A stretch of DNA of 61,500 bases from a virus (taxonomy: Duplodnaviria; Caudoviricetes): the IMG/VR virus record IMGVR_UViG_3300037484_001144, positions 1 to 61,500 of that record; one strand, written 5' to 3'. The position numbers and the translations under genes were made by a program. The notes beneath the pieces are model-generated. The model was not told the origin of the DNA and ran no database searches. It worked only from the letters and a program-made list of their open reading frames with translations. Shown piece by piece: positions 15,411 through 52,460 of this stretch. Numbering within the stretch: position 1 is the first letter of the stretch; the number at the start of each line of letters is the position of its first letter.

Positions 15411-16367
15411 TTATTCTCCAATCTCAAGGGAGGCAACCGCGGCGCGGCGGGTCTTCTCGTCGCGGATGTCATAAATGTTCGAGGTGGTGGCGGGGCTGGC
15501 GTGGCGGGCCAGTTTCTGGACGGTGGACAGGTCCTGCCCCTTATCCAGCAGAGTACAAATGAAAGTCTTCCGGAAGTCGTGCCAGGTGATGTGTTCGGAG
15601 ATAGACAAGCCCACCTGCCGGGCGTCCAGGATCTTCAGGAGGGCATACCCTCCCAGGGATCCGGCTGTGTTGATCTTGTCATTCTTGCGCACCTGACAAA
15701 AGACCCTGCCGGGATCGGAACCGCGGAGCATGAGCCAGGCGCGTAGCCTCTTGTATCCGCCATTGTACAGATACAGGGTGTCTACTCGGTTGCCTTTGCC
15801 GTGGATCACCAGGTCACACGAGTCGCCCGTGTGACCCTTGATGTCTTCCATCCGGAGGGTGGTCAGGTCATCGCGGCGCAGGCCACAGGAGAGCGCCACG
15901 GCGATCAGAGCTGCATCCCGCACACCTGCCGGGGATGTATCCGCGGCGCAGGCGTCCAGGAGTTCCTTGGTCTCTTCGGGGGATAGGTACCTGCCACGCG
16001 GCGGGCGTGCTCCTTTGACATTCCGGACCAGCAACACGCGCGAGGCGCGCTTGATATCGGCCTGTTTCTCGGGGCCGTCTTCCATCTGGTCTTCGGCGTG
16101 ATCGATCAGCTTGCGAGTCCACCAGCGTATGGCGGAGAGTTTCTGGCTGATCGAATCCGGGGCGTAGTTCTGCTTCTGCAGAGCCGCGGCGTATTCCTCT
16201 ACCAGGGTCTTGGTGAGAAGGCGCCCGTCCCGCCAGGTTTCGAATTCCAGCAGGGAGGAGCGGTACTGCCGGCGCGAGTGGCGCGAGATGAGCCGGGGGT
16301 CAGTCTCCACGGCCTGGGTGATCGCTTCAGCCATAGGGGAGGGGCTGGTAAGGGAGTTTTGAGTCAT
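15411..16367 (-). CDS. Tyrosine recombinase (phage integrase/XerCD-like)
   Basis: GLRRDD (R), HGKG (K), HDFRKT (HxxR), LARH and IYD (Y); N-terminal core-binding domain; no IntI-type insert. Confidence 0.9.
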   Translation of the reverse strand: MTQNSLTSPSPMAEAITQAVETDPRLISRHSRRQYRSSLLEFETWRDGRLLTKTLVEEYAAALQKQNYAPDSISQKLSAIRWWTRKLIDHAEDQMEDGPEKQADIKRASRVLLVRNVKGARPPRGRYLSPEETKELLDACAADTSPAGVRDAALIAVALSCGLRRDDLTTLRMEDIKGHTGDSCDLVIHGKGNRVDTLYLYNGGYKRLRAWLMLRGSDPGRVFCQVRKNDKINTAGSLGGYALLKILDARQVGLSISEHITWHDFRKTFICTLLDKGQDLSTVQKLARHASPATTSNIYDIRDEKTRRAAVASLEIGE

Positions 16368-24358: not shown

Positions 24359-25183
24359 GTGTCCTGCACTGGTTCTACTTGGGAAAACTTGCCGTTCGAA
24401 GGATCAAAAATTGATGTGGCTGAGCGGTGCGCAGCTCTGCGCTTCAATTGTTCCTCCTGCAGGCGTCATTTCCGGTCTGCCGAGCGCGTCCCAGTCTGCC
24501 CGGGTTGCGGAGCCGACCTCCAATGTGGAAAGTGGGCAGTACCCGGGTACCGCTACTGTGAAGACCACGGCGGTCCGGCGCCCAGCCGGAACTTCTACGG
24601 GAAAGGCAGGGGTATCGTGAGCGGCGAGAATTCCCAGTTTGCCCTGACACGCCTGGCATCCAGGTACGTCGAGATGCAGAAGGATGGGCGCATCCTTTCC
24701 AATCGGGCTGGTATTGCCGTGCTGGATGACCGGATCGTGGAGTTGCTGGAACGAATGGGAAATCAGCAGTTCCCGGACCAGCTTGCCGCCCTGCGGGACC
24801 TGTGGGAAGAATATAAGACTGTGGAGGGTACTGTTGAGCAAATCAAAGTCAAAAGGAAACTCCAGGCGGCATTCGACGCCGTTTATCATGACTACATGGC
24901 TTTCCACCAGATCGAAGAATCTCTGGAACTTAGGAGCAAAATGGTGGAAAGGGAGGCAAAGATCGCGAAAGACCTGCACGCGATCCTGACCGCCGAGGAT
25001 GCTTACAAGCTTGTGGCAAAGGTCCAGGCGGCAATTATCACTTCCATCCAGCAGGAGCCGGAGATCCCGGACCACGTAAAGGCACATTTCTTGAAGAGGA
25101 TCGAATATGAGTTTACTCGAATCATTGGAGAGGGATCTGGTGAAAGGTCTGGGGGAAGCGTCGGAGAAATTATCGACGCCTGA
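24359..25183 (+). CDS. Putative terminase small subunit
   Basis: Cys-rich N-terminus ending CEDHGG, then a helical region; directly upstream of TerL; start uncertain. Confidence 0.5.
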   Translation: MSCTGSTWENLPFEGSKIDVAERCAALRFNCSSCRRHFRSAERVPVCPGCGADLQCGKWAVPGYRYCEDHGGPAPSRNFYGKGRGIVSGENSQFALTRLASRYVEMQKDGRILSNRAGIAVLDDRIVELLERMGNQQFPDQLAALRDLWEEYKTVEGTVEQIKVKRKLQAAFDAVYHDYMAFHQIEESLELRSKMVEREAKIAKDLHAILTAEDAYKLVAKVQAAIITSIQQEPEIPDHVKAHFLKRIEYEFTRIIGEGSGERSGGSVGEIIDA

Positions 25184-27713
25184 CCCGGTAGACTGGATCG
25201 AAAAGAACTTCTATATCCCCGAGACCAAAAACGATCCTATTTTGCGCGGCAGGATTGAGCTGGAACAATACCACCGGGATGTCATCCGGGAAGCTCTTTC
25301 CAAGGACGAGAAGGGGTTTTATAAGTATTCGATCATTATCTGGTCAGACATCAAGAAATCGATCAAATCGACGATCGCCGCAGCGGTCAACTTATTTATC
25401 ATGGAATATACCGAATGGGGCGAACAATATATCGTGGCGAACGATCTCAAACAGGCGGATTCCAGGGTGTCGATGTACCTGCGGAGATGTCTGGAAATCA
25501 ACCCAAAATTCAAGAAGAAATATGGGGTCAAGGGATATCGCACCACCCACCCCGCCAATGGCTCTTATGCCGAAGCCATCCCGATTGACCCCAGCGGGGA
25601 AGCCGGGTCGAATGCGGACATGATTACATTCTGTCTGGACGAGCAAACGGAAGTTTTGACAAAGGACGGCTGGAAGGGTTGGGAAACTCTTTCCATGAAT
25701 GATCTAATTGCCACGCGTTCCCGTGATGGTGTTTTTGAATGGCAGGAACCTGATGGTATATATTGTTCACGCTACACCGGGGAAATGTATAAGATCACAA
25801 ATCGTTCTCTGGACGCCCTGGTCACACCTGACCATAGAATGTATGGAAAGTTCATCGGCGGACGAGGTATTGCCCCGGGCATGAATCGGTGCTGGAAACA
25901 TGAATTTGTTGATAACTTGGAAAGCAGGTTCCTGGTAGCTTCAAGTGCTGCAAAAACCTTGGCTTACTACCCTGTACTGACCAGTTTATGGCCGGATGGC
26001 GACGCTGCTCCTTTTATTATTCCTCCAACATATAGCCAACAGGGAAAGGGAAATAATCTTATTTTCCCTATCAATCAAACTAAAAAAGTTGTCTCTGCGG
26101 AACTCTTTGCCGAATTTATGGGATGGTATTTGTCTGAGGGCTGTGTCATAAAGAAACGCGGTAGGCTGGAAGGGATTTCCATAGGGCAATCGAAGACGAA
26201 AAACCCGGAGAACTACAATCGTATTATTGAGCTTTTGAAGGAAATGGATCTCTCGCCGCGAACCTGGAGTGACGGGATGAGCGTTATCGTATATCACTCC
26301 AAACTGGCCGAGATGTTGTTGAAATACGGCCTTTCTGGTGATAAGTATGTTCCGACGGAAATCAAGGAGTTACCGCTTCATTACTTGATGATTTTTTTGA
26401 ATGCCTATATCAAGGGAGATGGTCATCGGAATGGAAAATATGGATGGACGATCGGATCAAAGTCGAGAGAAATGAGAGATGATCTGGTCGAGATTGCGCA
26501 GAAATGTGGTTTCTCGGTTTCATCCTACGAAACTCAGGATTTCCGGTGGATCGGCAACCCTAAGATGTACTGTTTATATCTTCGGTCAAAAGATTCATTC
26601 AAGCGTTGCAAGGTGGAAAGAAAGCAATGGAGCACGGTTTCCTATGACGGAGTAGTGTTCTGCCCCTCTACACCTAATGGAATCATCTATGTTAGGCGAA
26701 ATGGGACTTATTATTGGACTGGCAACTCGGAACTGTGGGGAGCGAACCAGCAGGCCCAGCAAAGGATGTGGGGAGAAATGACCCTCTCCCCCACTAAGGC
26801 AGGAAAAAGTTTCCGCTGGGTAGAAAGTTACGCGGGGTACACAGAAGAAAGCCTCTTACTATATTCACTATACGCACTGGGTACTCAGCAGGGAAAATTG
26901 CTCTGGCCAGACAAACTTTACCCCGTGACGGGTGGAGCGCCAACCCCTTTAGAGTTGTACGTCAACGAAGAAGCGAAGATGTTGTGTTTGTGGAATACGC
27001 AACCAAGATGTAAATGGCAGACCCCCGAGTATTATCGGTCTGAAGAGAAGATTCTGCTTCCCAGTGACTTCCGCAGGATGCACCGCAACCAGTGGGTTTC
27101 CTCCACGGAGACATTCCTTCCGATGGAATGGTTTGACGCGTGCAGACGGTCTAACGAGTCCTGGCCAGAGGTTGATAAAAAACATAACTCATTTATTATA
27201 GCACTGGATGCGGCCACTACGAATGATAACTTCGGTTTGTTCCTGGGATGCAGACATCCCAAGTGTCCAAATGACGTTCTGACGATCCTGGCGCAGAAGT
27301 GGGTACCTGTCAATGGGAAGATCGACTTCCAGGGCACGGAAGAGAAACCTGGTCCAGAACTGGTGTTGAGAAGACTTGTCAAGGAGTATAACGTGATTGA
27401 GGTGGCTTATGATCCCACCCAGCTCTACGATATGTGTAATCGGCTGTACAAGGAAGGTCTGGCGTGGTTCCGACCGTTCAATCAGGGACAAGCTCGTCTA
27501 ATCGCAGACAGCCAACTGCGAGACCTGGTGCGAGAGAAACACTTCTGGCACCGCGGCGAGTCTGATCTGCGGGAGCATTTCAATAATGCCAACGCCCAGA
27601 TCGACTCCGAGGAACACAAGATCAGGATTGTGAAGCGTGTGGAAAATCTAAAGATTGATCTGTGTGTGGCGGCGTCCATGTGTTGCCACGAATTGCTGAG
27701 ATTGAACCTGTAA
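25107..27713 (+). CDS. Terminase large subunit, intein-containing
   Basis: Deviant Walker A (IKKSIKST); ITF|SELWG Walker B split by an intein; nuclease ALDAA...D, YDP and KIDL motifs. Confidence 0.85.
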   Translation: MSLLESLERDLVKGLGEASEKLSTPDPVDWIEKNFYIPETKNDPILRGRIELEQYHRDVIREALSKDEKGFYKYSIIIWSDIKKSIKSTIAAAVNLFIMEYTEWGEQYIVANDLKQADSRVSMYLRRCLEINPKFKKKYGVKGYRTTHPANGSYAEAIPIDPSGEAGSNADMITFCLDEQTEVLTKDGWKGWETLSMNDLIATRSRDGVFEWQEPDGIYCSRYTGEMYKITNRSLDALVTPDHRMYGKFIGGRGIAPGMNRCWKHEFVDNLESRFLVASSAAKTLAYYPVLTSLWPDGDAAPFIIPPTYSQQGKGNNLIFPINQTKKVVSAELFAEFMGWYLSEGCVIKKRGRLEGISIGQSKTKNPENYNRIIELLKEMDLSPRTWSDGMSVIVYHSKLAEMLLKYGLSGDKYVPTEIKELPLHYLMIFLNAYIKGDGHRNGKYGWTIGSKSREMRDDLVEIAQKCGFSVSSYETQDFRWIGNPKMYCLYLRSKDSFKRCKVERKQWSTVSYDGVVFCPSTPNGIIYVRRNGTYYWTGNSELWGANQQAQQRMWGEMTLSPTKAGKSFRWVESYAGYTEESLLLYSLYALGTQQGKLLWPDKLYPVTGGAPTPLELYVNEEAKMLCLWNTQPRCKWQTPEYYRSEEKILLPSDFRRMHRNQWVSSTETFLPMEWFDACRRSNESWPEVDKKHNSFIIALDAATTNDNFGLFLGCRHPKCPNDVLTILAQKWVPVNGKIDFQGTEEKPGPELVLRRLVKEYNVIEVAYDPTQLYDMCNRLYKEGLAWFRPFNQGQARLIADSQLRDLVREKHFWHRGESDLREHFNNANAQIDSEEHKIRIVKRVENLKIDLCVAASMCCHELLRLNL
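25632..26726 (+). mobile_element. Intein with LAGLIDADG homing endonuclease (365 aa) in TerL
   Basis: CLDEQTEVLT, VTPDH, FMGWYLSEG, FLNAYIKGDG, WTGN|S. Confidence 0.92.
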
Positions 27714-36808: not shown

Positions 36809-36857
36809 AACCGCTTCCCACGTGGACACAAGTCCGCGGGAAGCGGTTTTTTGTTTT
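36809..36857 (+). terminator. Terminator-like hairpin in the leader of the glycosylation operon
   Basis: aaccgcttccc...gggaagcggtt followed by ttttgtttt, ending about 15 bp before ATG 36873. Confidence 0.65.
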
Positions 36858-36872
36858 CATCGGAGGAAGCAT

Positions 36873-38912
36873 ATGGACATAAGGGAAGGATCCCTGTTCG
36901 TGACTGGAGGCGCAGGCACGCTCGGGAAGGCAATTGCCGCGCGCAGACAAAAAGATGGGTGGAAAGGCAGGTTGACGGTTTACAGCAGACATACTCATAT
37001 TCTGGAACAGATGAAGCGGGAATTCCCGGACGTTACGATCGTCCAGGGAGATATCCGCGATCCACTCACCCTCTACAATGCCATGGCGGGACACGACATT
37101 GTGATCCACGCCGGAGCGGTCAAGGTGATACCAGTCAGTGAAGAACAACCTATTGACACGATCCAGGTCAACGTGATGGGTTCTCTGAATGTCTGTGATG
37201 CGGCTGTGCGCGCGGGCGTGCGGGACGTGATCGCCATCTCCACGGACAAAGCGTGTTTGGAATGGCACTCTCCCGTCTTGTTAGAAGATGGAACTACAAT
37301 GCCCATTGGGGCGTTGGTGAGTTCTAAGACGAAGTGCGGAGTTAAGTCTTATGTTCAGTTTCCATTTGAAACCAAAATAGAGAGTCGCCCAATAACCGGG
37401 TGGTTCAAAAATAAGGTTGATGGAAGGAAAATGTATTCAGTTTCTTACGAGGGCGCGCCCAGTACCGGAAATGTTGACTATCACGTTTTGGTTACAGAAG
37501 ACCATAAGTTTCTAACGCAATCAGAAAACGGCTATCTTCACTGGACGCAGGCTAGGGATTTGGATAAGAGTGACGATCGGTTGGTAACCGCAGAATGGGA
37601 ATTTAATTACCTCCAAGAATCTCTTCTAGTTGGGACCATGCTTGGAGACGCAAGTATATCAAAAAACGAAGGAAACACACGTCCCAGGCTAAGAATGGCG
37701 CAAGCCAAAGGGGAAAGTGAATGGCTTCTTGTCAAAGCTAAGGCACTCTCGATTGAAAATGAAAGAATTCATGAGTGCAAGGGGATCGGAGAAACGCACC
37801 AAGACACCATTACTGCGTCTTCATCCGTATCTGCTAGTCTCCTAAAATACTTTGAAGCCTTTTATAAGCAACATAAAAAGGTGATTCCTTTTGAGTTGGT
37901 AGAAAAGGCTTTACAGAGCGTACATCGAAGACCTGTTTTTTTGGCATCGTGGTATCTAGACGATGGATGTACAACAGACAATTTAGCCAGAATCGCCACG
38001 CATGGTTTCACTCAAGAAGAGGTTATGAAACTTGCCGAGAAACTAACAAGTTGCGGGTTTGAGAGCTATAGCTATAAAGTGACCGTGGCCGGAAAAACAT
38101 ACTACGAACTTCGCTTTAATAAAACAGGCTCAAAGAGACTGTACCAAGAGATTGCTAAGTATGTTCCAGAATCGATGACTAGAAAAATTCCAGCTATCTA
38201 CAAAAAGCGGTATGACCCCGAGTTATGGAATCTTGGTGATCCTATTCAGTACAAAGCTAAACCAATCGTAAGGCTGGTCGGAAAAAACAAAACTGGTGAC
38301 GTGTACTGCATTGCCGTTGAACAAAGCGAGAATTTTATTGTAAATAACATGATCCTTCATAATTGTCATCCTGCCAATGCCTACGGCGCTACCAAGTACC
38401 TGATGGAGAAGATTTTCCAGGAATACTCCCGGAACTGGAAATCCCCAAAGTTTCACCTGGTCCGCTATGGGAACGTTCTCGATTCCAATGGCAGTGTCGT
38501 TGAGGCATGGAAGAACTCGCTCAAGCATGGGGACACGATCAAGATGACCAACCCGAACATGACGCGCTTCTGGATATCTCCCGCTCAGGCAGTGAACTAT
38601 GTTATCGGTGCACTGGAACAGGAAAGTGGCTGTATTTACATCCCAAAGATGAAAGCCCTTTCTCTGGGAAGGCTGCAGGAGTACGCAGTGGGAGAATGCA
38701 AGGTGGAGCGCGTGCCATTGCGCGCTGGAGAGAAGATCCACGAAACCCTGTTGACCCTGGAAGAGTCTCCATTCGCGCTGGATATGGGGACCTATTACCT
38801 GCTCTATCCCACAACCCACAAACGATTTAGCGCGGTAATCTCGCCATATTCTTCCAATGTTGCATTGGAATTGACGCGCGAGGAACTGGCGGAGTTGTTG
38901 GAAAACAAATAA
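36873..38912 (+). CDS. UDP-GlcNAc 4,6-dehydratase-like (PseB/CapD family) SDR, intein-containing
   Basis: TGGAGTLG, GDIRD, STDKA|CHP, YGATK, RYGNV, MTRFW, GEKIHE. Confidence 0.88.
   Translation: MDIREGSLFVTGGAGTLGKAIAARRQKDGWKGRLTVYSRHTHILEQMKREFPDVTIVQGDIRDPLTLYNAMAGHDIVIHAGAVKVIPVSEEQPIDTIQVNVMGSLNVCDAAVRAGVRDVIAISTDKACLEWHSPVLLEDGTTMPIGALVSSKTKCGVKSYVQFPFETKIESRPITGWFKNKVDGRKMYSVSYEGAPSTGNVDYHVLVTEDHKFLTQSENGYLHWTQARDLDKSDDRLVTAEWEFNYLQESLLVGTMLGDASISKNEGNTRPRLRMAQAKGESEWLLVKAKALSIENERIHECKGIGETHQDTITASSSVSASLLKYFEAFYKQHKKVIPFELVEKALQSVHRRPVFLASWYLDDGCTTDNLARIATHGFTQEEVMKLAEKLTSCGFESYSYKVTVAGKTYYELRFNKTGSKRLYQEIAKYVPESMTRKIPAIYKKRYDPELWNLGDPIQYKAKPIVRLVGKNKTGDVYCIAVEQSENFIVNNMILHNCHPANAYGATKYLMEKIFQEYSRNWKSPKFHLVRYGNVLDSNGSVVEAWKNSLKHGDTIKMTNPNMTRFWISPAQAVNYVIGALEQESGCIYIPKMKALSLGRLQEYAVGECKVERVPLRAGEKIHETLLTLEESPFALDMGTYYLLYPTTHKRFSAVISPYSSNVALELTREELAELLENK
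37254..38363 (+). mobile_element. Intein with LAGLIDADG endonuclease (370 aa) in the sugar dehydratase
   Basis: CLEWHSPVLLEDG, VTEDH, LLVGTMLGDA, WYLDDG, ILHN|C. Confidence 0.92.
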
Positions 38913-49564: not shown

Positions 49565-49795
49565 TCAAGAACTGATTGCGAACTTGCAAACTGGACAGAA
49601 GCGCAGATCATTCTCGATAACAAGATCGCCGTGCCCTTCTGGGAATTGAGTGGGTAATTCTATCTCAACACTTTGTTGGGCGGCTTCATGGAGCGCGGCT
49701 GTAACATTGACAAACAATATAGATATTTCTACCAATGAGCCGCCATGCTTGGATTGATATATTTTTATCGCCTCTAATAGTTCTTCATTTTCCAT
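49565..49795 (-). CDS. Last cassette ORF (hypothetical, C-terminal CxxC)
   Basis: GAGGAG RBS after the core site GTTAGGC; contains a decayed attC left end at 49675-49684. Confidence 0.6.
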   Translation of the reverse strand: MENEELLEAIKIYQSKHGGSLVEISILFVNVTAALHEAAQQSVEIELPTQFPEGHGDLVIENDLRFCPVCKFAISS

Positions 49796-49823
49796 TTGCA
49801 ATTCTCCTCGTTGAGCGATAGCC

Positions 49824-49951
49824 GCCTAACGGCTTACATTACTGGCGGGTGGGTTTTCCGCAGAGACGGCAATACTCACCCATACGATCATTGGCAGGCT
49901 CTGGAATTTTGCAGGTGCATACCCACCCGTCCGGTGCATGTTTTGTTAGGC
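49824..49951 (-). repeat. attC site 1
   Basis: GCCTAAC-AAAAC-ATGCACCGGAC...GCCAGTAATGT-AAGCC-GTTAGGC. Confidence 0.85.
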
Positions 49952-50060
49952 GTTTACCGCATTTTGGACAATTGCCCTTGATGGCTTTGTAATACCTTGA
50001 TTGGCAGCGCGGACAAACGCTCAGGTTTTTGGGCAGGGTGTGATTGTGTGGATTTAGCAT
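49839..50060 (-). CDS. Cassette ORF, Cys-rich Zn-ribbon protein
   Basis: AAGGAG RBS; CxxC pairs; reads through attC1. Confidence 0.6.
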   Translation of the reverse strand: MLNPHNHTLPKNLSVCPRCQSRYYKAIKGNCPKCGKRLTKHAPDGWVCTCKIPEPANDRMGEYCRLCGKPTRQ

Positions 50061-50075
50061 TTAGCTCCTTCAAGC

Positions 50076-50201
50076 GCCTAACGGTTTGCGTTACCCGCCG
50101 CCGAATGTAGCGGACAGGTCATCTGCAAAAAGCGATAATTGCAGGGGATAAGACGCGGGCGGCTGAACGCCGAAGGCGGTCGGGTGCACGCGTTGTTGGG
50201 C
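50076..50201 (-). repeat. attC site 2
   Basis: GCCCAAC-AACGC-GTGCACCCGAC...GCGGGTAACGC-AAACC-GTTAGGC. Confidence 0.88.
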
Positions 50202-50477
50202 AGCCCACATGGACACGCGCGGCGCATAATTTTTAGAATATGATTCAACGCGCTTTAGAGCTTCGGTAACAGCTTCTTGCCGCGTTGTATACATGCGCCC
50301 CTTTGACAATGGTTCAGCCATTCCGCCGCCTGCATACTGGACACTAGCTGATTGCACCCAGGCATTATCGCCAATCTGTAACAATCGGATGATGACGCAC
50401 GCTTTGCCTGATGTGTACTCAATGTGCTCTGCGTGCGTCTCTGGATATGACCCGTGTTTATTTGGCTTTGGAAACAT
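50091..50477 (-). CDS. Cassette ORF, hypothetical
   Basis: AAGGAG RBS, start MFPKP; reads through attC2. Confidence 0.65.
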   Translation of the reverse strand: MFPKPNKHGSYPETHAEHIEYTSGKACVIIRLLQIGDNAWVQSASVQYAGGGMAEPLSKGRMYTTRQEAVTEALKRVESYSKNYAPRVSMWAAQQRVHPTAFGVQPPASYPLQLSLFADDLSATFGGG

Positions 50478-50491
50478 TGCGCTCCTTGGCT

Positions 50492-50582
50492 GCCCAACGG
50501 CTTGCGTTACCCGCTTGGGGGTTGCTCGCCATTGCCTGATTTCGCCACCGTACCCCCAAGTCGGGTGCACGCTGTGTTAGGT
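50492..50582 (-). repeat. attC site 3
   Basis: ACCTAAC-ACAGC-GTGCACCCGAC...GCGGGTAACGC-AAGCC-GTTGGGC. Confidence 0.9.
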
Positions 50583-50725
50583 GCGCTCAATGGATGCGCT
50601 TCTACACCTGGGGGGAGATGATCGTTACATACATTGCGAATCATCAAGCCGCCCCATGAGACAGCCATCCAGCGCGCCTTTTTGCGACACTGTGTATTTG
50701 CGTGGACAAAGACTTCACATCTCAT
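50507..50725 (-). CDS. Cassette ORF, small Cys/His protein
   Basis: ATG 5 nt after the core site GTTAGGT; reads through attC3. Confidence 0.55.
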   Translation of the reverse strand: MRCEVFVHANTQCRKKARWMAVSWGGLMIRNVCNDHLPPGVEAHPLSAPNTACTRLGGTVAKSGNGEQPPSG

Positions 50726-50730
50726 ATAGC

Positions 50731-50820
50731 ACCTAACGGCTTGCGTTACCCGCGTGGGGCACGCGAACCCGTCCAAAAATTACACAGCCTGCCCCACGTC
50801 GGGTGCACGCTGTGTTAGCC
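50731..50820 (-). repeat. attC site 4
   Basis: GGCTAAC-ACAGC-GTGCACCCGAC...GCGGGTAACGC-AAGCC-GTTAGGT. Confidence 0.9.
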
Positions 50821-51094
50821 GCGTTCTATAGTGCTCGAAACGGCTTTGATGACCAACGCGCCAAAACTTCAACGCGGCTTCGGCTGACTTCCAGCGACAT
50901 CGTTTATAAAATGCGCTGGTTCTACTGGATGGGATAGGCTCAATTTCCCATTCGCCTTGTTTATTGAGACAGCAACCTTTTTCACGGATAGCCCATAAAT
51001 CAGAGCCATCAATTTGCTTGACACATTCAAGGCGGACATCAATCAAATCTTTCCAGCCATCTAACTCGTAGACCAACACTTTCAGATTTTCCAT
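50780..51094 (-). CDS. Cassette ORF, conserved phage-type hypothetical
   Basis: AAGGAG RBS; WAIR...CLNKQGEWEIEPIPSSR...FYKRCRW. Confidence 0.7.
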   Translation of the reverse strand: MENLKVLVYELDGWKDLIDVRLECVKQIDGSDLWAIREKGCCLNKQGEWEIEPIPSSRTSAFYKRCRWKSAEAALKFWRVGHQSRFEHYRTRLTQRAPDVGQAV

Positions 51095-51116
51095 GACACT
51101 CCTTTTGCAAGTAAGC

Positions 51117-51282
51117 GGCTAACGGGGCGCGAAATGAGCAGCGAGCGGGGCGTTTAGCATTGCCCCGCCAAAGTTATGGCACAGTCCCTTGCGTGGAGTT
51201 CGGGCATAATGGCATCACCCTCACCGCATGTGCACAAGGGGCGATGCTGCCCCGCTTCGTCTGCTCCAATTCGCAGTTGTGC
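51117..51282 (-). repeat. attC site 5
   Basis: GCACAAC-TGCGA-ATTGGAGCAGAC...GCTGCTCATTTCGCGCCCC-GTTAGCC. Confidence 0.75.
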
Positions 51283-51468
51283 GTCGCGGGTCAAGCAAGT
51301 CATCAAGAAATATAATTCAGCATTGCAGTCTGGACACCTGAGGGCGTAATCTGGTTTATTAGCACAGCAGAAGTCCAGCACAGTTACACGGTTTACAGCG
51401 TCACACTGCGGGCAATTGAAGATTATTCTTTCACCGTCAAGAGTATTTTCCTGGGCAATCAATAGCAT
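51154..51468 (-). CDS. Cassette ORF, Zn-ribbon protein
   Basis: AAAGGA RBS; CPQC and CPDC; reads into attC5. Confidence 0.6.
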   Translation of the reverse strand: MLLIAQENTLDGERIIFNCPQCDAVNRVTVLDFCCANKPDYALRCPDCNAELYFLMTCLTRDAQLRIGADEAGQHRPLCTCGEGDAIMPELHARDCAITLAGQC

Positions 51469-51565
51469 CTCGTTTTTCCTTTCGTTGAGCACGATTGCGA
51501 ATTGCATTTCGCGCCCCGTTGTGCGTCCAGCGAGTGGGGCGGCGTACTCGCCGTCTCCGAGCGAC

Positions 51566-51685
51566 GCACAACGGTGGGCTTTACCAGCGGCGGGCTGGAT
51601 GTAGATCATTTGCCAGCAAAGCCCAACCATAACTAATGATTTTTCGCGGGCGCGTACCCGCCGTCTGGTGCAAGCAGTGTTGGGC
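51566..51685 (-). repeat. attC site 6
   Basis: GCCCAAC-ACTGC-TTGCACCAGAC...GCTGGTAAAGC-CCACC-GTTGTGC. Confidence 0.85.
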
Positions 51686-51827
51686 AGAAATGTTCCTGCG
51701 TAACACAGAGCCATTGCCCGACTTTACCCCGCATGGCGTTTTCGGATGCTTCATCGAGCGATTGTGCTTCGACAATTTCAACGGAGTGCTTGCCTTCTGG
51801 GGAAATTAACCTTACAGAGATTTGCAT
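51633..51827 (-). CDS. Cassette ORF, hypothetical
   Basis: AAAGG RBS, start MQISVRL; ends inside attC6. Confidence 0.55.
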   Translation of the reverse strand: MQISVRLISPEGKHSVEIVEAQSLDEASENAMRGKVGQWLCVTQEHFCPTLLAPDGGYAPAKNH

Positions 51828-51839
51828 ATTTGCCTTTCT

Positions 51840-51969
51840 GCCCAACGGATTACATTAGCGGCAGTTGGGCGGGAACAGTGTCCGCTTCTGCGGTGGATAA
51901 GATTTCAGGCTGTGGTAACGCCTGCGGCGTGGGAGAATCCCCAACTGTCCGCTGCATGTGGTGTTCGGC
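51840..51969 (-). repeat. attC site 7
   Basis: GCCGAAC-ACCAC-ATGCAGCGGAC...GCCGCTAATGT-AATCC-GTTGGGC. Confidence 0.85.
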
Positions 51970-52302
51970 GGCGTTTGCTTTACGGCAATCCCATCCCGCC
52001 GCTTCTGCTTCCGCCTTTGCTTCAAGAACCCAGGCAAATAATTTCTTGTTCGAGAAATTATCACCCATCAATTTCATGTACTTGGTTCCCAAAAATGCTT
52101 TGATGTAAGCATCCCAGAGTAGATACAAATGTTGTTTTACTTCGTCGGTTGGGTATCCAGCCAACCCAGCGCCATCTACGCGGGCAAAATATCGAACCAT
52201 CCATAGCAATCGCTCAGGGTCATCTGCTCCATCGGTTGCATGGTGCGGAGGATTGGCGCGCCATGCGGATGCACATTGTTTGATATAGGCTTCGCAGTCC
52301 AT
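51850..52302 (-). CDS. First ORF of the cassette array, hypothetical
   Basis: GGGAG RBS; reads through attC7. Confidence 0.65.
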   Translation of the reverse strand: MDCEAYIKQCASAWRANPPHHATDGADDPERLLWMVRYFARVDGAGLAGYPTDEVKQHLYLLWDAYIKAFLGTKYMKLMGDNFSNKKLFAWVLEAKAEAEAAGWDCRKANAAEHHMQRTVGDSPTPQALPQPEILSTAEADTVPAQLPLM

Positions 52303-52376
52303 TTTTCTCCCATCAACAAGCCGCGTAAGGGAGGTAGTCGGTCAAATCTGGGCGGTAAATATAATTCATGTAATTG

Positions 52377-52405
52377 ATTGTACAACCATACACATAAACA
52401 GTCAA
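52377..52405 (-). promoter_or_regulatory. Pc-like sigma70 promoter facing the cassette array
   Basis: TTGACT-17-TACAAT; the -10 overlaps GGTTGTACAA. Confidence 0.75.
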
Positions 52406-52460
52406 GGGGAAAATAATAGTATAATTAGCAATAGTGTCATTTGTCATATATAGGAGAAGC

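Follow-up and report, generated by a model that had tools for sequence, protein, structure and literature searches.

Cassette Genes Read into Their attC Recombination Sites in a Phage Array and across Its attC Family

The IMG/VR virus record IMGVR_UViG_3300037484_001144, whose whole length of 61,500 bases is the window analyzed here, has direct terminal repeats, is estimated to be 100% complete and carries an array of seven integron-type attC sites with their cassette genes. The usual picture of an integron cassette is that of a gene followed by an untranslated recombination hairpin. In this array, every cassette open reading frame (ORF) instead runs past the R'' end of the site and into its own attC. 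A preliminary description of this DNA had reported as much, and the observation is confirmed for all seven ORFs, which overlap their sites by 38-127 nucleotides (nt). Read-through of this kind is real, extends across the attC family to which the array belongs and shows signs of selection. We judge it slightly better than an even chance that this is an integrase-less phage array whose genes are read through attC to a TAA in L', that such reading keeps the attC hairpin melted, and that the peptide tails so encoded are mostly by-products.

Results

A 20-nt motif from the arm of these sites matches 50 IMG/VR contig stretches and at least 120 genome-contig stretches, the great majority of the latter titled Anaerolineales, Anaerolineae or Chloroflexota; the host of the phage is probably an Anaerolineales (Chloroflexota) bacterium. 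A covariance model (R1), built from six window sites with attC5 left out, detected 233 sites in viral DNA (50 loci from 48 records) and 237 in host DNA (80 loci, L052-L131). Viral and host arrays were compared using all 240 viral sites (the 233 and the seven of the window) and the best 150 of the 237 host sites. The main ORF of each cassette was chosen by its length up to R'' only, a rule that replaced a longest-ORF count, which favoured ORFs extending into attC. Among cassettes bounded by two sites, the stop codon lies at or after the R'' in 133 of the 158 viral top-strand cassette ORFs versus 5 of the 85 host ORFs (Table 1). Read-in occurs across all size classes of viral ORFs, including 38/41 of those with bodies of at least 150 codons, and, along one strand, the ORFs fill the space between attCs to a median of 94%.

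Table 1. Dimensions of viral and host cassettes and position of the stop codon of the main ORF
Property	Viral	Host
Cassettes bounded by two sites	187	91
Median inter-attC space	261 nt	661 nt
Median ORF length	86 codons	191 codons
Stop before R''	25	80 (46 within 30 nt)
Stop in R''	16	4
Stop in L''/loop	36	0
Stop in L'/R' arm	73	1
Stop beyond attC	8	0
Longer bottom-strand ORF	27	6
No ORF	2	0

The frame in which attC is entered is far from random. At 177 of the 240 viral sites, R'' is reached by an ORF of 40 codons or more in one frame only, and at these sites the frame was picked from the upstream sequence alone. The distribution of downstream stops in the ORF frame differs from that in the two other frames (chi-square p = 1.4e-18): stops fall in R'' in 20/177 ORF frames versus 89/354 other frames, in the L'' arm in 9/177 versus 42/354, in the loop in 42/177 versus 97/354, in L'/R' in 97/177 versus 60/354, and beyond the site in 9/177 versus 66/354. 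When the ORF enters in phase 0, the R'' stop is present in 19/61 cases, compared to 83/116 when phase 0 is unused. Once the loop is reached, it is more often open than stopped in the ORF frame (106:42) than in the others (126:97; p = 0.004), and once the 3' arm is reached, stops within the arm outnumber those beyond it by 97:9 in the ORF frame, as against 60:66 elsewhere (p = 1.5e-13). A single position, which lies within the conserved GGTAAC of L' and 17 nt ahead of the R' end, accounts for the stops of 79 of the 177 ORFs (76 with TAA and 3 with TAG) and of only 23/354 other frames (p = 1.2e-24). At 103/177 sites the ORF shares the register of the L' TAA, where one third would be expected. 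The same TAA is found in the host attCs but is unused there.

The sites of this family have the features of integron attCs, namely a core pair, an imperfect hairpin whose structure is kept beyond its sequence, and arrays of a single orientation in which one cassette lies between successive sites (187 bounded viral cassettes). None of 51 sources has matches on both strands, and AAC and GTT are invariant in all 148 distinct viral sites. In these 148 sites, with an alignment fitted to the model, 92.2% of structure cells pair versus 72.9% after shuffling and 30-35% after sliding; double-sided changes number 682 versus 208, and compensatory changes are seen in 19 of the 25 pairs. Host attCs are uniform (quartiles 129-130 nt, conserved loop), whereas viral attCs range from approximately 60 to 195 nt (quartiles 94, 117 and 126) and have diverse loops. 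The viral and host cassette pools have little in common: when viral cassette bodies were searched for in the 80 host loci, they matched only one short contig (L052), in which the ORF also abuts R''.

An association with the integron integrase IntI is found for the family as a whole, although not in the window genome. IntI scored above the curated cut-off in three of the four host genomes examined (438-467 bits), and all three host intI loci have an attC of the same family within the 1.5-kb flank, on the opposite strand. Five of the 48 viral records (G007, G023, G033, G037 and G041) also have an IntI above the cut-off, and one more reaches 257 bits. In G023, a 56-kb record that is estimated to be complete, intI is followed downstream on the same strand by nine attCs (L179, 9861-13664). 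Only 36 nt separate intI from the start of the first cassette ORF, so that a classical attI would hardly fit between them; this ORF, too, ends at the -17 position.

The array of the window is listed in Table 2; coordinates are in plus-strand numbering, and both sites and ORFs lie on the minus strand (sites 49824-51969). The preliminary description stated that several ORFs stop only in the right arm, which agrees with the four (ORF1, ORF2, ORF3 and ORF7) that end in the L' arm. The seven peptides that it quoted are all present and represent the R''-L'' arm in three reading phases. Good Shine-Dalgarno sequences stand directly beyond the preceding R', and that of ORF3 (AGGTG) overlaps the R' of attC4.

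Table 2. Features of the inserted block, in plus-strand coordinates (z, z-score of the fold)
Feature	Coordinates	Strand	Length	Remarks
Terminal ORF after attC1	49565..49801	-	76-78 aa	no attC of its own; marks end of inserted block
attC1	49824..49951	-	128 nt	model match 110.7 bits; DNA fold z -3.79; loop encodes CTC...CRLC
ORF1	49839..50060	-	73 aa	read-in 110/128 nt (by hand); stop in L' arm
attC2	50076..50201	-	126 nt	model match; DNA fold z -3.65; loop yields tail ...HPTAFGVQPPASYPLQLSLFADDLSATFGGG
ORF2	50091..50477	-	128 aa	read-in 108/126 nt; stop is the conserved L' TAA, 17 nt before R' end
attC3	50492..50582	-	91 nt	model match 86.6 bits; DNA fold z -2.31
ORF3	50507..50725	-	72 aa from ATG	read-in 73/91 nt; stop is the conserved L' TAA of attC3
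attC4	50731..50820	-	90 nt	model match 80 bits; DNA fold z -3.03
ORF4	50780..51094	-	104 aa	read-in 38/90 nt; stop in loop of attC4
attC5 (atypical)	51117..51283	-	167 nt	cores GCACAAC and GTTAGCC; placed by eye; DNA fold -44.5 kcal/mol, z -3.32
ORF5	51154..51468	-	104 aa from ATG	AGGA Shine-Dalgarno; read-in 127/167 nt; stop in loop of attC5
attC6	51566..51685	-	120 nt	model match 108.3 bits (training site); DNA fold z -1.31
ORF6	51633..51827	-	64 aa from ATG	GAAAGG Shine-Dalgarno; read-in 50/120 nt; stop in loop
attC7	51840..51969	-	130 nt	R'' GCCGAAC at 51969-51963; R' GTTGGGC ending at 51840; model match 100 bits (training site); DNA fold z -1.57
ORF7	51850..52302	-	150 aa	enters attC7 in phase 0; read-in 117/130 nt; TAA in L' arm
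Three sigma-70-like promoter matches	52377..52447	-		candidate single array promoter, upstream of ORF7; consensus matches only

Cores of the RYYYAAC and GTTRRRY types are present at all seven sites, with one-base departures at attC4, attC5, attC6 and attC7. As single-stranded DNA, the plus strand is predicted to form long, imperfectly paired hairpins with a T bulge and a 2x1 internal loop (GC against T) in the 3' arm; we take these bulges to be the canonical extrahelical bases of attC. This anatomy identifies the plus strand as the bottom strand, which places each ORF upstream of its own site, as in integrons. The z-scores of the DNA folds range from -1.3 to -3.8, those of attC6 and attC7 being weak. 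The covariance model finds its six training sites again and nothing else in the window, a result that is circular for the window itself, and it misses attC5 even at E<=10. When folded as RNA together with the flanks, the minus strand gives -50.4 kcal/mol for attC2 (z only -0.92), -51.0 kcal/mol for attC3 (z -2.61) and -49.8 kcal/mol for attC7. In two of these three folds, the base of the stem reaches the next Shine-Dalgarno sequence; in attC3 it is predicted to pair into that region.

Between the start of ORF5 and attC6 (51469-51579) there is a 17-nt inverted repeat (51511-51527 with 51563-51579) that contains GTTGTGC and GCACAAC in the order opposite to that of an attC, and part of the attC6 arm is directly repeated over 15 nt (51542-51556 and 51652-51666). 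These repeats may be a remnant or a rearranged site.

Analysis of the cassette proteins with Pfam and PHROGs gave weak zinc-ribbon-type matches for ORF1 and ORF5 and nothing for the others at E<=0.001; six of the seven have no Pfam match, and none has a PHROG match at that threshold. ORF1 has a zinc ribbon in its body and a second Cys motif that derives from the attC1 loop. Its AlphaFold model, made from the single sequence, was uninformative, with a predicted local distance difference test score (pLDDT) of 56. ORF5 also has a zinc ribbon in its body, and a search for its homologues returned the window's own record alone. Fifteen homologues were found for ORF2, and its model, based on a 16-row alignment, has block-mean pLDDT values of 81-93 up to residue 100, compared to below 50 for residues 103-128. 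A fold search with this model gave no match in the PDB at E<=0.001 and one in BFVD, an uncharacterised phage protein (E 6.3e-5, template modelling score 0.60), which gives no function. Eight relatives of ORF7 were found: three of them (101-102 aa) end near ORF7 residue 100 and have no tail, and two further ones bear attC-type tails in other phases.

A near-identical ORF4 cassette is present in the viral locus L043, and cassette 4 as a whole (ORF4 and attC4, 50735-51125) recurs at approximately 97% identity in contigs from three other metagenome runs, two from soil and one from wastewater. The likeness of these copies to the window ends at the R' of attC4, and the flanks beyond differ, as expected of a mobile cassette. 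By analogy with known integrons, this end point would fit recombination by IntI between the G and the TT of R'.

The preliminary description proposed that the attC loop serves as extra coding space, and this idea could be upheld for a subclass of sites only. The pattern used to identify zinc-ribbon-like loops consists of two Cys/His knuckles that are 6-25 residues apart, without a stop and within the loop. It occurs in 16/177 used frames versus 1/354 other frames (p = 1.7e-7). Among all viral sites it is found in 23/720 top-strand and 0/720 bottom-strand frames; the host sites gave 2/450 top-strand frames, both poor matches, and 0/450 bottom-strand frames. The 23 zinc-ribbon-like tails use both Cys codons (TGC 52, TGT 43), and their cores are alike as DNA in only two pairs, which indicates that the Cys pattern was kept while the DNA diverged. 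One viral loop matches the Pfam DnaJ CXXCXGXG zinc finger. Of the two Cys/His-rich mini-domains that had been described, the CTC...CRLC of attC1 is real and recurs elsewhere: the attC1 loop peptide is found with 90% identity (27/30) at the end of a 76-aa protein (P0001) that has an unrelated N-terminal body. P0001 enters R'' in another phase, and an arm that is one base longer, as judged from the protein sequence, restores the loop frame. The CTC...H..C of attC5 is present but has no outside support. In about one tenth of the sites, attC1 included, the loop encodes a putative four-Cys zinc-ribbon motif that appears to be kept at the protein level, which would make the site dual-coding.

Most other attC-encoded tails appear, from sequence comparison and modeling, to be tolerated and disordered by-products. 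In 13 clusters of homologous cassette bodies, two of which are DNA methyltransferases, the phases of entry into attC differ, the site lengths differ and the tails are unrelated. Related loops are read in different frames in 17/55 pairs, and differences by codon position (0.183, 0.133 and 0.199) do not depart significantly from uniformity (p = 0.064), with only 23 ungapped pairs of related loops available for this count. The G+C content of the loops is modestly higher at first than at third codon positions in the used frame (0.569 vs 0.502; averaged other frames 0.519 and 0.548). The ORF2 tail (50091-50201; P0004-P0022) is kept in 15 homologues and is found on three other, unrelated kinds of body. 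It includes the sequence QLSLF, which in our view resembles the bacterial sliding-clamp-binding consensus. The pattern Q..[LM]F occurs in 8/177 used-frame tails versus 1/354 other frames and in 0/450 host attC frames, and the Q and F codons of QLSLF sit in the apical DNA stem (CTGCAA/TTGCAG). A complex prediction for Anaerolineales DnaN with the ORF2 tail scored 0.26, below the mark of 0.32, a value that is not evidence either way.

The cassette array is part of a 2.7-kb block of minus-strand ORFs (49565-52302) that is flanked in this tailed-phage genome by structural genes on the plus strand, one on either side. Homologues of the two flanking genes, including that of a 407-aa protein at 57% identity, are found on a contig of a related phage (L178), which features a single small plus-strand gene at this position; this indicates that the block is an accessory insert. 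No core site could be recognized upstream of ORF7 (52303-52433). Since the last ORF has no attC and there is no core upstream of ORF7, the block may have entered the phage genome by, for example, a non-classical site. No terminator-like site was found inside the block.

No IntI is encoded in the 61.5-kb genome: the highest TIGR02249 score, 25.1 bits, falls short of the cut-off of 265, and the sole tyrosine recombinase (15411-16367) is a generic phage integrase. With seven attC sites and no IntI in the whole genome, the array is a cluster of attC sites lacking integron-integrases (CALIN), a class defined by at least two attC sites and no intI nearby. It is not a complete integron: there is no IntI and no recognizable attI, and only sigma-70-like matches are found upstream of ORF7. 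Large ORFs elsewhere on the plus strand have matches to DNA methyltransferases, glycosyltransferases and the large subunit of terminase, as well as to a tape-measure protein and a tail protein of the Dit type. Scans of the window with Rfam at gathering thresholds and for tRNAs gave no matches. In the 868-aa terminase ORF (25107-27713), the terminase match is confined to residues 652-862 and a thymidylate-synthase-family match covers residues 175-250; a 696-aa ORF (36822-38912) has, besides its matches to nucleotide-sugar epimerases, one to a LAGLIDADG homing endonuclease over residues 266-449. Both ORFs may contain inteins or fusions.

The cargo of the viral arrays was surveyed in 143 viral cassette proteins (L002-L051), which gave matches to N6_N4_Mtase (10), the C5 DNA_methylase (9), MT-A70 (3) and Dam (2), in agreement with PHROGs, and single matches to RNA ligase, FtsK gamma, ASCH and HTH domains. 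The suggestion in the preliminary description that the cassettes were made from phage genes is conjectural; the viral pool is distinct from that of the hosts and rich in DNA methyltransferases. A phage cargo that is rich in methyltransferases suggests a role in counter-defence.

Discussion

The cassette genes of this phage-borne lineage of sites lack a stop of their own. We propose a mechanism in which ribosomes cross R'', L'' and usually the entire loop and terminate mostly at the -17 position, on the conserved TAA of L'. Translation of attC would keep an RNA hairpin of about -50 kcal/mol melted, and the downstream cassettes of a single operon could then be translated, either by translational coupling or by relief of the hairpin block. 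By the time it reached the L' TAA, a ribosome would have opened the entire hairpin and would stand shortly ahead of the region where the next gene is initiated. Over 106 pairs of neighbouring cassettes, the median distance to the next start is 20 nt from the end of R' and 42 nt from the upstream stop. A Shine-Dalgarno-like word is present in the 15 nt before 86/106 of the chosen starts, a figure that is inflated since the script preferred such starts. Hairpin melting and coupling would fit both this geometry and published experiments on other integrons, and as the two point the same way, we favour selection for translation through the hairpin.

Several observations weigh against this proposal. 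In the window, ORF4, ORF5 and ORF6 (3/7) stop in the loop rather than in the L' arm, and across the family the L'' arm or the loop holds the stop of 51/177 ORFs and R'' that of a further 20. The median stop-to-start gap of 42 nt is longer than in classical overlapping coupling, and 41 of the 106 gaps exceed 60 nt. The z-scores of the RNA folds are modest (-0.92 for attC2). The sigma-70 consensus may not be that of the host, and internal promoters may exist. The contrast between viral and host arrays concerns one attC family, with the best 150 of 237 sites on the host side and a viral side that is defined by IMG/VR classification. Finally, the stretch is covered by no RNA run; each of the 12 sequencing runs listed for it contains just a small part, and in the four runs that were compared with the window, mainly the conserved arms and cassette 4 were covered.

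Read-in could also be a by-product of cassette birth or compaction, in which attC was joined at the end of a gene or trimmed back onto it, with loss of the gene's stop codon and use of the first stop that the conserved arms provide; selection would act only against fusions with the next gene, and read-in would have no role in expression. Homologous bodies do reach R'' without spare sequence and have unrelated tails in all three phases, relatives of ORF7 occur with and without tails, and the viral cassettes are compact relative to those of the hosts (Table 1). Moreover, the strongest single signal is avoidance of the frame that leads beyond attC (97:9 vs 60:66), which anti-fusion selection alone could yield. 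Such selection does not predict that the ORF frame also avoids stops in R'' (19/61 vs 83/116 in phase 0) and in the loop (106:42 vs 126:97), however, and the host cassettes, which have the same attC family, keep their own stops in 80/85 cases, so attC itself does not force read-in. We consider this explanation rather unlikely. Very improbable, in our judgement, is that the extensions are untranslated in vivo, owing to ribosome stalling or drop-off, or that the ORFs are non-genes and an artefact of ORF calling in G+C-rich palindromic DNA. The near-absence of Pfam matches and the absence of PHROG matches among the seven window ORFs would be compatible with this, but clear DNA methyltransferase cassette ORFs are likewise without their own stops, ORF2 and ORF7 both belong to conserved families, and the fold of ORF2 is predicted with confidence. 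In addition, the ORFs almost fill the inter-attC space on one strand, and a frame that was chosen from upstream sequence only nevertheless differs strongly from the other frames in its downstream stops.

Alternatively, the tails themselves could be the point, with attC acting as a portable 3' coding module that adds a functional C-terminal peptide such as a zinc ribbon or a QLSLF-like motif. This would account for the enrichment of zinc-ribbon and Q..[LM]F motifs in the used frame, for the attC1 loop peptide that is found on an unrelated body in the same loop frame despite another entry phase, for the ORF2 tail that is kept in 15 homologues and present on three other kinds of body, and for the G+C bias of used-frame loops. 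Yet the tails are mostly not conserved between homologues, 17 of the 55 related loop pairs differ in frame, codon positions show no significant bias and disorder is predicted for the tail of ORF2. Conservation at the DNA level could explain QLSLF, given the location of its Q and F codons in the apical stem, and conservation of tails could come from homogenisation of attC rather than from selection on the peptide. As a general explanation, we find this distinctly doubtful, and we retain the reading in which translation through the hairpin is what is selected.

Parts of this picture are already known, namely phage CALINs, the overlap of stop codons with attC, and the translational effects of attC hairpins. 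Classical class 1 resistance cassettes share with the phage cassettes the order R''-L''-loop-L'-R', a single promoterless ORF per cassette with attC downstream, and a stop codon that is often near or in the start of attC. The preliminary description took it as established that classical cassette genes usually stop at or before R'' and that untranslated attC hairpins reduce downstream translation. The premise about classical cassettes holds, both for the 80/85 host ORFs that stop before R'' and in the literature: the ACID database allows an ORF/attC overlap of at most 15 bp (PMC2674596), and attC overlaps the stop codon in most resistance cassettes (Carvalho et al. 2024, PMC11511950). By the ACID rule, all seven window ORFs fall outside the definition with their overlaps of 38-127 nt, as do the 97/177 family members that stop in L'/R'. 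Tools that forbid an overlap between ORF and attC would miscall these genes.

According to studies of translation in other integrons, attC hairpins hinder translation of the downstream cassette and small ORFs inside attC relieve this effect (Jacquier et al. 2009, as summarised in the review PMC8876359), and downstream expression doubled when translation was extended up to attC (PMC11511950). The likeness to the phage array is that the hairpin hinders and that translation reaching attC raises downstream expression. The difference is that the effect there was seen with mutations or with occasional small ORFs, whereas here an in-frame fusion of gene and attC, with a built-in shared stop, is usual.

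Qi, Rajabal, Ghaly, Tetu and Gillings (2023, PMC9892861) described 17 CALINs from sequenced phages, with DNA methyltransferases (5) among the cargo. Like the window, these have an attC array whose cassettes all point the same way, on a genome that lacks IntI, and methyltransferases are found in the cargo here as well. The passages of that article consulted here do not mention ORF read-through of attC, and its one passage on a "stop codon" concerns a prophage integrase. Compared to those 17 CALINs, a single attC family here accounts for 233 sites in 50 viral loci; of the 48 records concerned, five have an IntI above the curated cut-off. The sedentary chromosomal integrons of Anaerolineales have the same arm sequences, including the L' TAA, and an adjacent IntI. 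They differ in their uniform attCs of approximately 130 nt, longer cassettes and ORFs that stop before R'', in loops without the zinc ribbon (2/450 poor matches) or Q..[LM]F, and in sharing cassettes with the viral pool in only 1/80 host loci. Our literature search, with subscription journals and supplements outside it, returned no prior description of read-through or dual-coding attCs or of integrons in metagenomic viral contigs; what we likewise did not find in print, supplements again being outside the search, is the systematic in-frame fusion of gene and attC, the shared L' stop, the contrast with host arrays, and the zinc-ribbon loops.

A wider reading, to which we give somewhat less than an even chance, is that the attC of Anaerolineales phages has become a translated element with two functions, serving both as the recombination hairpin and as the 3' terminus of the cassette gene, with a shared stop codon built into L'; that in some lineages its loop holds a portable C-terminal zinc-ribbon module which can follow unrelated proteins; and that the arrays are exchangeable banks of small genes and orphan methyltransferases, probably for counter-defence. 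If this is true, these phage integrons, of which some encode an IntI themselves, would be a counterpart to the integrons in which bacteria keep defence genes, while drawing on a pool that is separate from that of the host. The expression of distal cassettes is an active question in integron biology, and here a phage lineage has a layout that host arrays with the same sites do not, which makes it a natural test case for the idea that translation controls polarity in cassette arrays. The sites also give evidence that the "variable" loop of attC can carry selected protein code, and the many phage integrons found, with their wealth of DNA methyltransferases, widen the known role of integrons beyond bacteria.

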